From IMG/VR virus record IMGVR_UViG_2690316343_000007: a DNA stretch of 7,011 nucleotides, one strand, 5' to 3'. The stretch comes from a virus. Taxonomy: Duplodnaviria; Heunggongvirae; Uroviricota; Caudoviricetes. Below, piece after piece: positions 4,368 through 7,011 of the stretch. Made by a program: the position numbers and the translations under genes. Every line of letters starts with the position of its first letter. Position 1 is the first letter of the stretch. Below the pieces are notes generated by a model. It worked only from the letters and a program-made list of their open reading frames with translations, searched no databases and had not been told where the DNA came from.

Positions 4368-4631
4368 AGAAAACGCCAGACTGTTAGCCGGGTATCAGTT
4401 AGCGGGAGAAATTTTTAAATACTTCACAATTCAGGCGGTTGACTGTTGTCTGGTTTGCGGGGAGTTTGTTAAAAGAAACTGGCATGGTGAATCCCCCTGT
4501 GCGGAGGGGCAATCAGCGAGTAGGTATATGGGATAATCGCGGATTCAGGTGCTGGTACTGAATTCACCGGGAGGCACCCGGCATCATGCAATGGCACATA
4601 GCGCCACTCTCCAGCCCTCTCCGGAGGGGCT
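4368..4631 (+). repeat. direct repeat copy A (~264 bp), partner of 5958-6222
   Basis: Aligned by eye to 5958-6222 at an offset of 1590: one substitution (T4584 vs C6174), one 1-nt indel in the terminal hairpin, and one N in copy B. Contains several hairpins (4494-4509, 4541-4565, 4567-4581). Confidence 0.95.
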
Positions 4632-4636
4632 TTTCT
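4613..4636 (+). terminator. intrinsic-terminator-like hairpin at the 3' end of repeat copy A
   Basis: AGCCCTC...GAGGGGCT stem with one bulged base and a TCCG loop, followed by TTTTCTGTG. Confidence 0.4.
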
Positions 4637-4863
4637 GTGCCGGATACATCACAGTTTCTGGAACCTTAGGTACTACAGTATCAGTCAGGGTGCTATATTT
4701 TCAGATGTGATGAAAGCCTGTCAGCAGGCAGGGCGTATCGGAAATGACCCAGTAGAGAAAACGTTGACTCAGATACCGGTGCTGAGTTACCGGGAAACCG
4801 GCATCACATGACCGCTATCCTGAGGTGTACTGGCAATAGCGGACACTACCATTTGTTCTTTTT

Positions 4864-5682
4864 TTAAGCAGCCATCTGATGATATTTTTCCCTGAAGGCT
4901 GCCGGGGAGATATTCCCCAGACGAGAGTGACGACGCTGACGATTGTAGAAAATCTCAATGTATTCCCGTATTACTGAGATGGCTTCATCCCGGTTATTAA
5001 AACGATAGTGGCTCAGGCTCTCATTTTTCAGCGTTCCCCAGAAGCTTTCCATCGGAGCGTTGTCGTAACAGTTACCTTTACGCGACATTGATGTTTTCAG
5101 ACCAGACTGCTCCTGTATGACCCGGTAATCGTATGCGCAGTACTGTGAACCTCGATCAGAGTGGTGGATTAGCCCGGCAGGTGGGCGCTGGCTCCTGAGC
5201 GCCATAAACAGGGCTTTACCTGTCAGCTCTTTTGTCATGCGCTCTCCCATGGCGTAGCCGACAATTTCGCACGTATAAACATCTTTGATGCCAGCGAGGT
5301 ACAACCATCCCTCCTGTGTGGCAACATACGTCAGGTCCGCCACCCAGACCTGATTTGGTGCTGTAGGAGCGAACGTCTGGTTCAGCAGATTTGGCGCAAC
5401 TGGCAGATTGTGGTTCGAGTTCGTAGTCGCTCTGAACTTGCGTTTCTGCTTACAGCGTAGCCTTAGCTCCTTACGAAGACGTGCCAGTCGGTCACGACCA
5501 ACGATGATGCCATTCTCTGCCAGCTCCGTCTGGAGCCGCCGGGTTCCATATGTTTCGCGAGTGCGGATATGTGCCACCTTAATCTCCAGTTTTAGCCGCT
5601 CATCACTTTGTTTTCTGTCTGAGGGTTCATGCTGTACCCAGTTGTAATAACCGCTCCTGGATACACCAAATACCTGACACAT
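4864..5682 (-). CDS. IS3-family transposase OrfB (DDE/RNase-H-fold catalytic domain)
   Basis: 272-aa ORF with the characteristic WVADLTY, HSDRGSQY and CYDNAPMESFWGTLKNE segments. Its frame is open upstream back to the slippery site, consistent with OrfAB fusion by a -1 frameshift. Confidence 0.9.
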   Translation of the reverse strand: MCQVFGVSRSGYYNWVQHEPSDRKQSDERLKLEIKVAHIRTRETYGTRRLQTELAENGIIVGRDRLARLRKELRLRCKQKRKFRATTNSNHNLPVAPNLLNQTFAPTAPNQVWVADLTYVATQEGWLYLAGIKDVYTCEIVGYAMGERMTKELTGKALFMALRSQRPPAGLIHHSDRGSQYCAYDYRVIQEQSGLKTSMSRKGNCYDNAPMESFWGTLKNESLSHYRFNNRDEAISVIREYIEIFYNRQRRHSRLGNISPAAFREKYHQMAA

Positions 5683-5717
5683 CGCTTCAATGGGAAATTG
5701 TTGTCGCCATTGTTCGA

Positions 5718-5957
5718 TTAACGCGTATTTTTCAGCGACTCCTGTGCAAAATACGCTGTTGCTTTTTTTAATATATCTCGCTCAAGGCGAGCTTCATTTA
5801 ACGCCTTACGCAGTTGCAGAATTTCAGATTCCAGTTCAGCCACCGTGCGGGAACCAGGAGTACCGAGCCCTTTTCTGGCGGCGGTAACCCATTGTCCTAA
5901 AGTGCCTTCAGGAAGAGATAATCGGGAAGCGCCTTCACTGATCGAAAGTTGATTTTC
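5718..5957 (-). pseudogene. IS3-family transposase orfA, 5'-truncated (about 79 codons, no start codon)
   Basis: Minus-strand translation gives ...ENQLSISEGASRLSLPEGTLGQWVTAARKGLGTPGSRTVAELESEILQLRKALNEARLERDILKKATAYFAQESLKNTR-stop, an HTH plus leucine-zipper OrfA C-terminus. The upstream frame runs into repeat sequence with no Met. Confidence 0.75.
5763..5769 (-). other. programmed -1 ribosomal frameshift site (A AAA AAA heptamer) linking orfA to orfB
   Basis: Seven consecutive T on the plus strand (A7 on the coding strand) inside the orfA 3' end. A -1 shift here reads KKSNSVFCTGVAEKYALIEQWRQQFPIEAMCQVFGVS into OrfB with no stop. Confidence 0.6.
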
Positions 5958-6222
5958 ANAAAACGCCAGACTGTTAGCCGGGTATCAGTTAGCGGGAGAA
6001 ATTTTTAAATACTTCACAATTCAGGCGGTTGACTGTTGTCTGGTTTGCGGGGAGTTTGTTAAAAGAAACTGGCATGGTGAATCCCCCTGTGCGGAGGGGC
6101 AATCAGCGAGTAGGTATATGGGATAATCGCGGATTCAGGTGCTGGTACTGAATTCACCGGGAGGCACCCGGCACCATGCAATGGCACATAGCGCCACTCT
6201 CCAGCCCCTCTCCGGAGGGGCT
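5958..6222 (+). repeat. direct repeat copy B (~265 bp), partner of 4368-4631, directly abutting the truncated IS
   Basis: See copy A. Position 5959 is an N, right next to the junction with the IS fragment. Confidence 0.95.
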
Positions 6223-6238
6223 GTTTATATTGATTTTG
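6203..6238 (+). terminator. intrinsic-terminator-like hairpin at the 3' end of repeat copy B
   Basis: Perfect 8-bp stem AGCCCCTC/GAGGGGCT (6203-6210 / 6215-6222) with TCCG loop, followed by the T-rich GTTTATATTGATTTTG. Confidence 0.4.
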
Positions 6239-6255
6239 TCAGATGTGAGTAAACT

Positions 6256-6287
6256 CCTTATGGACTTTGTTGTTTTAGTCCATAAGG
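6256..6287. repeat. perfect 11-bp inverted repeat (stem-loop) overlapping the stop codon of the 111-aa ORF
   Basis: CCTTATGGACT (6256-6266), loop TTGTTGTTTT, AGTCCATAAGG (6277-6287). May be a terminator for the minus-strand gene, but the downstream U-tract is weak. Confidence 0.75.
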
Positions 6288-6593
6288 ACATATTTGCAGA
6301 GTGCAACGGTTATTAAAGCATTCATTCAATACGTTATCTGTATTTGTAGGGCATTCCTGGCTATTTTTGATTGAATTCCAGAATGTTTTATTGAATGGTA
6401 CTACGTTGTAAATGGTTACAGGTAGCACTTTGTTATTGAGCATGATGCCTGTGTGAGTCAGTGTAAATATACTTTCAGGAGGTAAGAAAGCATCCGATTG
6501 ATACCAGATTATTAATTTTATTTTACTCCATATGACTGAAAAAGATATTCCGCATGATGGCTGGATAACTGTATCAATCACAATCCACTTCAT
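6258..6593 (-). CDS. hypothetical AT-rich protein (111 aa, Cys-containing), function unknown; candidate accessory (moron) gene
   Basis: Good RBS on the minus strand: AAGGAA 5 nt upstream of the ATG at 6593-6591. Markedly AT-rich compared with the phage genes. Stop codon lies inside a perfect 11-bp hairpin. No family recognised. Confidence 0.45.
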
Positions 6594-6853
6594 TTAGTTT
6601 CCTTGTTTATGCCTTGCTGGTGATGTTCTGAAAAGTATAAATGATATTTTTGAATGTAAACCATAGAGCAGAATTATTTTTCTGATGTTGTTTATTGTTT
6701 ATTTAAATGCAGGGTGGTTTATATCTCGTCTTGTAGTTTATCCATGCATATCTGCTTGATAATCAGGTTTTTATTTAAGGTATGGTTTTGTGTTTTTTCT
6801 GTATTACATGTCAGGTATTTTAAAGAATTATTTTTCAGATGGTGGAAAGAACC

Positions 6854-6980
6854 ATGGCATTTAAACACTATGATGTTGTCAGGGCGGCGCCGCCGTCAGA
6901 TCTTGCGGAAAAGCTGACACATAAACTGAAAGAGGGCTGGCAGCCGTTTGGTAGTCCGGTGGCCATAACCCCTTATACCC
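6854..6980 (+). pseudogene. 5' portion of a small DUF1737-like late-operon gene, interrupted after 42 codons by an IS end
   Basis: ATG at 6854 with GGTGGAAAG upstream. Product MAFKHYDVVRAAPPSDLAEKLTHKLKEGWQPFGSPVAITPYT contains the EGWQP-G motif I associate with DUF1737 proteins found just upstream of lambdoid lysis genes. The frame runs straight into IS sequence at 6981. Confidence 0.5.
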
Positions 6981-7011
6981 TGAGGTGTACTGGCAATAGC
7001 GGACACTACCA
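6981..7011 (-). mobile_element. end of a second copy of the same IS3-family element, continuing beyond the right window edge
   Basis: 6979-7011 is identical to 4819-4851 (CCTGAGGTGTACTGGCAATAGCGGACACTACCA), i.e. the same terminus in the same orientation. Confidence 0.8.

Follow-up and report, generated by a model that had tools for sequence, protein, structure and literature searches.

The window, by which we mean the whole 7,011-nucleotide stretch of DNA that was analyzed, opens with three plus-strand genes, which encode an 85-aa open reading frame (ORF) (154 to 411), RusA (411 to 785), and a 284-aa Q-type antiterminator (782 to 1636). Further along lie a 65-aa ORF, a plus-strand DNA methyltransferase gene (2408 to 3466), and a plus-strand tRNA cluster (3507 to 3756). 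ARAGORN, Rfam, and the RefSeq annotation of Escherichia coli ATCC 11775 identified this cluster as a tRNA with a CAT anticodon, Arg-TCG, and Arg-TCT, and in that RefSeq record the CAT-anticodon tRNA is annotated as tRNA-Ile. A 117-aa ORF (3867 to 4220, plus strand) and a DUF3927 gene (4256 to 4387, plus strand; 95.6 bits) come next, the latter running into the 5′ part of the first of two repeat copies.

The two plus-strand copies of this repeat span 4370 to 4631 (copy A, 262 nt) and 5960 to 6222 (copy B, 263 nt). Positions 4370 to 4617 and 5960 to 6207 align over 248 nt with a single mismatch (T at 4584, C at 6174), and past a 1-nt indel in a C run the homology extends to 4631 and 6222, a length far above what would be expected by chance in 7 kb. 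The repeat is a predicted prophage small RNA (sRNA) gene of the STnc100 family: Rfam model RF02076 (gathering score, 47) aligned over all 206 of its positions to 4453 to 4642 in copy A (122.5 bits) and to 6043 to 6232 in copy B (132.4 bits), both on the plus strand. Copy A ends in a hairpin and T run (4613 to 4631), and copy B has a 9-bp terminator stem (6202 to 6223). A simple scan found no consensus promoter for either copy, only the terminator-like hairpin and T run. Sub-threshold Rfam matches, including a third STnc100 match at 4681 to 4869 (21.8 bits), P26, and Trp_leader, were taken as chance.

Each copy is followed by its own unique DNA and then by the same insertion sequence (IS) end, as the first-pass annotation had described. 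Downstream of copy A, 189 bp of plus-strand unique sequence (4632 to 4820, referred to here as uA) precede an IS end at 4821; downstream of copy B, the roughly 760 bp of that annotation measured 759 bp (6222/6223 to 6980) before the same end at 6981. The sequence TGAGGTGTACTGGCAATAGCGGACACTACC begins at both positions in identical orientation. The cargo of copy B is likewise as reported: a 111-aa ORF on the minus strand (6258 to 6593) and the start of a plus-strand DUF1737 gene (6854 to 6980; Pfam PF08410, 57.9 bits) that is cut by the IS. The 111-aa protein is an IraM-type anti-adaptor (162 bits with NCBIfam NF007393, whose cutoff is 121), an identity supported by the RefSeq annotation of E. 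coli 042; it had no match in Pfam-A at an E value of <0.01, and PF11183 (PmrD) appears among its precomputed matches.

The IS is IS600, of the IS3 family, and lies on the minus strand at both sites. The first copy (4821 to 5958; orfB at 4864 to 5682) comprises 1,138 of 1,264 bp; the 126 absent bp hold some 20 codons of orfA along with the left inverted repeat. The second is represented by its first 31 nt at the window end (6981 to 7011). Over its 1,138 bp, the first copy is 100% identical to Shigella sonnei copies annotated as "IS3-like element IS600 family transposase." The element has TG...CA ends and an orfA/orfB arrangement, its proteins match Pfam rve, rve_2, rve_3, and HTH_21, and in finished genomes the uA site shows a 3-bp target duplication. 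The first-pass annotation had this element truncated exactly at the start of copy B, at 5957/5958, with an N at the junction. The two do adjoin across an N, and the position was off by one: the IS ends at 5958, a single n stands at 5959, and copy B begins at 5960. Because both copies naturally have DUF3927 sequence upstream, the homology between them must end wherever the join falls, so the exactness of the truncation is true by construction and no independent coincidence. We therefore dropped it as evidence for either reading of the junction.

Lambdoid prophages of the same genome had been expected to hold the parental arrangements, and these were found in S. sonnei, which bears two paralogous lambdoid prophage remnants. 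Locus A carries, in order, DUF968, RusA, Q, a 65-aa ORF, a DNA methylase, three tRNAs, STnc100, uA interrupted by IS600, a second STnc100-like gene, DUF1737/SASA esterase, and a holin. Locus B carries an 85-aa ORF, RusA, Q, two tRNAs, a 117-aa ORF, DUF3927, STnc100, IraM, and a DUF1737 gene interrupted by IS600. Our S. sonnei comparison set consisted of 18 stretches, 10 of locus B (L005 to L014) and 8 of locus A. In the complete genome CP104423.1, units A and B have the same orientation and lie at about 1.866 Mb (L015) and about 2.536 Mb (L005), respectively, a distance of about 670 kb; both loci were also retrieved from CBDDMI010000001.1 and from HE616528.1 (S. sonnei 53G). Every window segment is 99.9 to 100% identical to one of these loci. 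Unlike the two units of the window, however, the loci are 0.67 to 0.78 Mb apart across finished genomes, and each contains a complete IS600 and a single copy of the repeat at high identity (53G has no IS600 in uA). E. coli 042/ST131 and ATCC 11775 were considered as parents and rejected; they have the right architectures but only 96 to 97% identity, against about 100% for the S. sonnei loci.

Painting the window with 25-mers from loci A and B, together with alignments, gave an order of origin of B, A, B, A, n, B, at about 100% identity to the respective locus. Locus B-derived sequence occupies 1 to 1638 and is followed by 63 nt shared exactly by both loci (1639 to 1701); positions 1 to 1701, with the 85-aa ORF, RusA, and Q, are 99.94% identical to L005, with one private base at 416, and only 94% identical to locus A. 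Locus A-derived sequence follows from 1702 to 3679, holding the 65-aa ORF, the methyltransferase, and the first two of the three tRNAs, and 69 exactly shared nucleotides (3680 to 3748) then contain the switch back to locus B, inside the third tRNA; 1960 to 3748 is identical to L015. Locus B-derived sequence with the 117-aa ORF and the DUF3927 gene runs from 3749 to 4453, up to 130 shared nucleotides (4454 to 4583), and 3680 to 4583 is identical to L005. From 4584 to 4842, the window is locus A-derived, including uA, which is identical to L015 and, in locus A, lies between the two STnc100-family genes and ends at the IS600 insertion site; the IS that follows is shared up to the n. Past the n, painting assigned 5960 to 7002 to locus B, and 5960 to 7011 (1,052 nt) is 100% identical to L005. 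All N-free 25-mers occur in locus A or locus B, except those over the private base at 416. As an aside, the switch points all fall in non-coding DNA or RNA genes, and no chimeric protein is formed.

The locus switches occur only within the shared exact stretches of 63, 69, and 130 nt or at the N join. Sequences spanning the three shared stretches from one locus to the other (81, 86, and 148 nt) were present in 0 of the 18 S. sonnei stretches, 10 of locus B and 8 of locus A. Locus B markers were found in locus B stretches and never in locus A, and locus A markers in locus A stretches and never in locus B. A subset of these markers was also present in L001 or L002 (ATCC 11775), the E. coli references. 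Between the first two shared stretches, the branch is 213 nt in locus B, 1,738 nt in locus A, and 1,738 nt in the window once the N gap and one 53-mer are removed; between the second and third, it is 705 nt in locus B, 85 nt in locus A, and 705 nt in the window. Copy A is itself a hybrid, with B-type bases at 4421 to 4453, shared sequence at 4454 to 4583, and A-type sequence at 4584 and in the C run, while copy B consists of the STnc100 gene of locus B preceded by the final 42 nt of the DUF3927 region. Alignment to the S. sonnei loci revealed that the differences between the copies are exactly those between loci A and B. This rules out a single repeat duplicated by the assembler, since 4584 and the C run distinguish the copies just as they distinguish the loci.

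A second join lies upstream. Identical 53-mers (1720 to 1772 and 1960 to 2012) flank a run of 187 N (1773 to 1959) within the locus A-derived segment. In both ATCC 11775 and S. sonnei locus A, the 53-mer occurs once, and the sequences on either side of the gap overlap there by exactly 53 nt. Judged by these overlaps, the 187-N gap is demonstrably false, which means that the assembly contains unmerged or misjoined contigs.

The junction between IS600 and the repeat was found in 0 of 5,426 complete E. coli genomes and in 0 of the 18 S. sonnei stretches. Its exact pattern around the n was likewise absent from species-representative genomes and JGI metagenomes; the exact pattern of the uA-IS junction was absent from species-representative genomes as well. 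Both flanks of the n continue differently in every complete genome compared. The only new adjacency in the window is the one that bears the n, so the novel junction is not covered by called bases. In finished genomes, both IS600 copies are full length (1,264 bp): the one in uA has a 3-bp target duplication, TCC/TCC, in L015 to L018, L020, and L021, and the one in DUF1737, seen in L005 and others, has none. 53G (L019), L022, and many E. coli genomes have the uA site without an insertion. Upstream of the repeat, DUF3927 is intact in 10 of 10 locus B stretches. The first-pass annotation had anticipated that, in the case of an artifact, long reads would reveal one repeat copy and one IS with a full-length orfA. 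Long-read genomes do have a full-length orfA in each IS, but they have two repeats and two IS600 copies at separate loci, not one of each.

Taken together, these data indicate that the window is very probably a chimeric scaffold of two S. sonnei prophage loci, produced by short-read assembly, and that the side-by-side placement of its units is artifactual. The individual units are real DNA that resides in separate prophage remnants in finished S. sonnei genomes. Short exact stretches common to both loci make them a series of linked bubbles in an assembly graph. The assembler would keep one branch per bubble, here the longer branch at both length-variant bubbles, and at the last fork two exits would remain, uA-IS600 and IraM-DUF1737′-IS600. 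A scaffolder or gap closer may then have put both exits in series, so that the sRNA repeat was written twice with a single n between the copies, the n marking a computational join of two contigs. The two-locus origin of every segment, the switch points, the false 187-N gap, and the complete IS600 copies of finished genomes are direct results, whereas the exact software behavior, bubble popping and incomplete gap closure, we infer. The apparent truncation of the IS and its abutment to copy B would be contig ends and not a deletion junction; the IS600 of the window is incomplete only because the contig ends there and is not biologically truncated. The biology beneath is ordinary: a conserved sRNA gene of prophages lies with the Q/tRNA region on one side and variable cargo on the other, and each locus has taken a separate IS600 insertion. 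Most IraM-bearing contigs in public assemblies are shorter than 5 kb, indicating that short-read assemblies usually break at this place. IS600 is multicopy in S. sonnei, with 6 to 11 places per plasmid listed, and Shigella reference chromosomes carry 229 to 348 IS insertions, a known obstacle for short reads (PMC7373316).

Several observations go against an artifact. Loci A and B by themselves do not predict branch points at either contig end flanking the n. We rejected, as an argument for an artifact, the idea that copy B begins at a graph branch point: its first base corresponds to 4370, whereas homology to locus A begins at 4412 and is exact from 4454. The contig ends fall in A runs, and AnAAA at 5958 to 5962 fits both sequences; it could also reflect a join at microhomology in which one homopolymer base was called with uncertainty. 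In its k-mers, a window produced by crossovers inside identical stretches would look no different from one produced by mis-threading of a graph. The order of methylase, tRNAs, 117-aa ORF, DUF3927, STnc100, and uA is natural in some E. coli strains, being present in Eco_23-3511 at 96.5% identity and in strain 2D at 99.3% over 4150 to 4821, and the left unit is thus no impossible prophage architecture.

Two other accounts were weighed. A microhomology-mediated illegitimate deletion could have joined the 3′ end of DUF3927 to position 1138 of IS600, with gene conversions producing the mosaic to its left; the n would then be an uncertain homopolymer base in a true tandem of two sRNA-cargo cassettes, and the join would read TTGATTTTCA(A/G)AAAACGCCAGACTG. 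At the join, IS600 has TTTTCAAAAAC and locus B has AAAAAGAAAAC, with AAAAC in common and the n on the single conflicting base, and the copies differ by one single-nucleotide polymorphism and one indel, which speaks for two genomic copies and not one written twice. Those differences, however, are the ones that separate loci A and B. This account also requires three or more independent events (replacement of the 213-nt B branch through conversion by the 1,738-nt A branch, a B-to-A switch in the 130-nt stretch, and the illegitimate join), no intermediate was seen in the 18 finished S. sonnei stretches or 5,426 E. coli genomes, one crossover between the direct loci would cause a deletion or duplication of the 670 kb that separates them, and the same scaffold has a proven false gap. 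We regard this account as extremely improbable. That the strain truly bears two STnc100 genes in tandem, with the uA spacer and IraM as their respective cargo and a 5′-truncated IS600 between them, through gene conversion and a microhomology join, is very improbable. The proposal of the first-pass annotation that recombination or deletion joined two cargo cassettes is not supported, since the junction is in no complete genome, its base is not called, and its left side is a two-locus patchwork; the alternative which it mentioned, mis-assembly across repeats, is the best-supported explanation.

The adjacency itself might be real if an IS600-associated rearrangement had put uA-IS600 beside the locus B fragment. 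In that case the n would represent DNA left out of the assembly, including at least the missing 126 bp of IS600; the order of the units would be right, and only the sequence of the junction would be lacking. Recent IS activity in S. sonnei is high, and IS copies drive deletions and rearrangements (PMC7373316). The IS600 of locus B, having no target duplication, has already taken part in a rearrangement, and the scaffolder presumably had a read-pair reason for its contig order. Read pairs from the B-type segment at 3749 to 4453 to IraM, however, would by themselves place the IraM contig here, and a rearrangement leaves the alternation of B and A to the left of uA unexplained. A contig that abuts an IS normally carries the left end of the element, yet the IS interior precedes 5960, and the intact DUF3927 of all locus B stretches also argues against a rearrangement. 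We consider it very improbable.

The chimeric scaffold favored here closely resembles the repeat-induced chimeras of IS-rich, poly-lysogenic Enterobacteriaceae such as Shigella and STEC. As in those cases, the exact stretches common to paralogous prophages exceed the k-mer length, contigs stop at the edge or in the interior of IS copies, joins are marked by N, and duplicated ends lie beside gaps; nothing essential differs, the particular software behavior being our deduction. The window serves mainly as a caution: a scaffold of an IS-rich genome with several related prophages can interweave two of these, and the product then looks like a recombinant in which regulatory RNA genes are duplicated and an IS is truncated. 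If the window were accepted as written, tandem sRNA duplications, truncated IS600 copies, and recombinant prophages would all be overcounted. The underlying biology, an STnc100-family sRNA gene ahead of variable cargo and lineage-specific IS600 insertions, is already known.

Both copies fit the STnc100/PasD sRNA family, scoring 122 to 132 bits over the full model with a terminator hairpin at the end. PasD-family genes are set in the lambdoid prophage late region beside esterase or DUF1737 genes (bioRxiv 10.64898/2026.05.13.724894), and the copies in the window occupy the same setting. The multiple copies of the measured Pas sRNAs are reported to come from multiple prophages and not from tandem duplication (bioRxiv 10.64898/2026.05.13.724894), which matches the two-locus conclusion for the window. 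A 57-aa fusion product of the interrupted DUF1737 gene is called in all locus B stretches.

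The window contains two units, each composed of a repeat copy, a unique segment, and an IS end. The repeat is direct (4370-4617 and 5960-6207; 248 nt, with a single mismatch at 4584/6174), and its homology extends past a one-base C-run indel to 4631/6222. The unique DNA 3' of the repeat is 189 bp long after copy A and 759 bp long after copy B, and the IS end (TGAGGTGTACTGGCAATAGCGG...) is present at 4821 and at 6981 in the same orientation. An 'n' at 5959 separates the end of the first IS, at 5958, from the beginning of copy B, at 5960. The sequence thus bears out the two units, the common IS orientation, and the N at the junction, as described in the first-pass annotation. 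The region upstream of the repeat is the late-regulatory region of a lambdoid prophage, with RusA, a Q-type antiterminator, a DNA methyltransferase, three tRNAs, a 117-aa ORF, and DUF3927. Located 3' of copy B are a 111-aa minus-strand ORF predicted to encode an IraM-type anti-adaptor (NF007393, 162 bits) and, from 6854, the 5' part of a DUF1737 gene.

Finished Shigella sonnei chromosomes, including that of strain 53G (HE616528.1), were reached through exact protein matches to IraM and the methylase. Two prophage remnants match the window, and in CP104423.1 they are separate, in the same orientation, and ~670 kb apart. Locus B (L005, at ~2.536 Mb) carries an 85-aa ORF, RusA, Q (284 aa), tRNAs, the 117-aa ORF, DUF3927, STnc100, IraM, a truncated DUF1737 (57-aa fusion), and IS600. 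Locus A (L015, at ~1.866 Mb) carries DUF968, RusA, Q (273 aa), a 65-aa ORF, the methylase, three tRNAs, STnc100, uA (the 189-bp unique segment that follows copy A), IS600, a second, diverged STnc100, a DUF1737/SASA esterase gene, and a holin gene.

Using alignment and 25-mer painting, we assigned each part of the window to one of these loci. Positions 1-1638 are of locus B, with one private base at 416; 1639-1701 (63 nt) are shared; 1702-1772 and, beyond 187 N (1773-1959), 1960-3679 are of locus A; 3680-3748 (69 nt, within the third tRNA) are shared; 3749-4453 are of locus B; 4454-4583 (130 nt, within the repeat) are shared; and 4584-4842, including the junction of uA with IS600, are of locus A. 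The IS is common to both loci, and after the 'n' at 5959 the window returns to locus B (5960-7002; 5960-7011 are 100% identical to it over 1,052 nt). All N-free 25-mers were found in locus A or B, except those over base 416. Within copy A, the bases are of B type toward the 5' end and of A type toward the 3' end, making this copy a hybrid as well. B markers occurred in 0 of 8 locus A stretches and A markers in 0 of 10 locus B stretches; some markers of either type are also present in the Escherichia coli references L001 or L002. The sequences spanning the switches (81, 86, and 148 nt) were absent from all 18 of these stretches. The window therefore originates from two loci and changes between them at these points. 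The first and second shared stretches are 213 nt apart in locus B and 1,738 nt apart in locus A; in the window, without the 187-N gap and one 53-mer, the distance is exactly 1,738 nt. For the second and third, it is 705 nt in locus B, 85 nt in locus A, and 705 nt in the window. At both length-variant intervals, the window holds the longer branch.

The 187-N gap (within 1720-2012) has identical 53-mers on both sides. The gap flanks share an overlap of exactly 53 nt in both E. coli ATCC 11775 and S. sonnei locus A, where the 53-mer is single copy, as it is in all of the locus A stretches retrieved. This makes the gap false, and it and one copy of the 53-mer are artifacts. The window was evidently scaffolded from short-read contigs with unmerged ends.

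The first IS belongs to the IS3 family and is a copy of IS600, with rve and HTH_21 domains and 100% identity over 1,138 bp to S. sonnei plasmid copies annotated as "IS3-like element IS600 family transposase." Both copies of IS600 have their full length of 1,264 bp in finished genomes, so the "truncated" IS of the window is a contig end. The abutment of this IS on copy B (5958/n/5960) had been noted as an exact truncation; the abutment is present, but it carries no evidential weight, being true by construction. Because DUF3927 sequence lies naturally upstream of both copies, their homology must stop wherever the join falls. At the uA site, IS600 has a TCC target duplication at its ends in the finished genomes that carry it (L015-L018, L020, and L021), and the empty site, GCTATCC|TTCCAGG (window equivalent, 4820/4821), is kept in 53G (lineage II) and CP029794.1, making this a simple, lineage-specific insertion. 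The uA copy is polymorphic among S. sonnei genomes, and the strain of the window belongs to the group carrying it. At the DUF1737 site (L005, ~6350-7615; window, from 6981), IS600 lacks a target duplication, with CCC on one side and CTA on the other, and in 10 of 10 genomes unrelated phage DNA stands beyond it in place of the lysis genes and the remainder of DUF1737. This indicates that the element marks an old deletion or rearrangement associated with the IS. In 53G and one other genome (L007 and L013), the locus B IS600 spans 2,041 bp rather than 1,264 bp because of a nested IS1 (InsA/DDE_Tnp_IS1 genes). CP046286.1 has an extra IS600 within the 117-aa ORF upstream of DUF3927 (window equivalent, 4068-4071).

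The most economical account, and very probably the correct one, is an assembly-graph chimera of the two paralogous loci. Loci A and B would form a chain of bubbles in which A-or-B alternatives precede, separate, and follow the shared stretches of 63, 69, and 130 nt. A single branch would be retained per bubble; at the last fork, both exits would be placed in series, so that the sRNA repeat was written a second time and one 'n' was left. Bubble popping and incomplete gap closure are the presumed software steps. Mis-assembly across repeats, offered in the first-pass annotation as its alternative, is supported by the A/B mosaic, the false gap, and the full-length IS600 in finished genomes. Its preferred reading, a recombination or deletion product joining two cassettes, is not supported, given the same mosaic and the absence of the IS-repeat junction from 5,426 complete E. 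coli genomes.

Loci A and B do not predict a branch point at either of the contig ends that flank the 'n'. Each end falls in an A-run, and the bases at 5958-5962 (AnAAA) agree both with IS600 (AAAAA) and with locus B (AGAAA). A gap that was closed incompletely or a short overlap that is spurious could give such ends, and so could a microhomology junction in which a homopolymer base was called with uncertainty. That the units are truly adjacent, with a gap still standing at the 'n', is improbable, and that the junction is real exactly as written is more improbable still. For the structure to be real, a 1.7-kb conversion, a switch within 130 nt, and an illegitimate join would all have had to occur independently, and no finished genome examined holds any intermediate. 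We regard the tandem arrangement of the two units as not a real feature; IS600 expansion in Shigella (PMC7373316), STnc100/PasD sRNAs, and IraM-type cargo are already known.

The repeat is an STnc100-family sRNA gene (Rfam RF02076; gathering score, 47), at 4453-4642 in copy A (122.5 bits) and 6043-6232 in copy B (132.4 bits), both ending in a hairpin and T-run. STnc100 and the related PasD are sRNAs carried by (lambdoid) prophages, and a recent preprint reports that, for the Pas sRNAs it measured, multiple genomic copies stem from multiple prophages and not from tandem duplication (10.64898/2026.05.13.724894). Locus A of 53G (L019) has two tandem STnc100-family genes (9426-9615, 123.6 bits; 9893-10102, 161 bits), roughly 79 to 81% alike across aligned parts, so a genuine but diverged tandem does exist. 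In most other S. sonnei genomes, IS600 sits between the two.

IS600 was found at neither the uA site nor this DUF1737 site in any of the 5,426 E. coli genomes. E. coli 042 and ST131 strains have DUF3927, one repeat copy only, IraM, and DUF1737, and ATCC 11775 has the methylase, three tRNAs, the repeat, and uA. These strains supply both architectures, yet their identity to the window is only 96 to 97%.

Among the other genes, the Q-type antiterminator (782-1636, plus strand; 284 aa) has DnaJ-like CxxCxGxG zinc-finger repeats and homologues classed as Pfam Antiterm; its 273-aa locus A paralogue has ~94% DNA identity. Base 416, which differs from every S. sonnei locus B stretch examined, is the third codon position of RusA Arg2, and the change is therefore synonymous. 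The first tRNA (3507-3582) is called Met (CAT) by ARAGORN, whereas its RefSeq homologue is tRNA-Ile; we take it to be the Ile2-type tRNA, modified with lysidine, that is usual in the ileZ-argN-argO cluster of Stx-like lambdoid phages. Neither Pfam nor NCBIfam has a match for the 117-aa ORF (3867-4220, plus strand), which lies between the tRNAs and DUF3927 and is conserved in prophages of the E. coli 042 and O104:H4 types.
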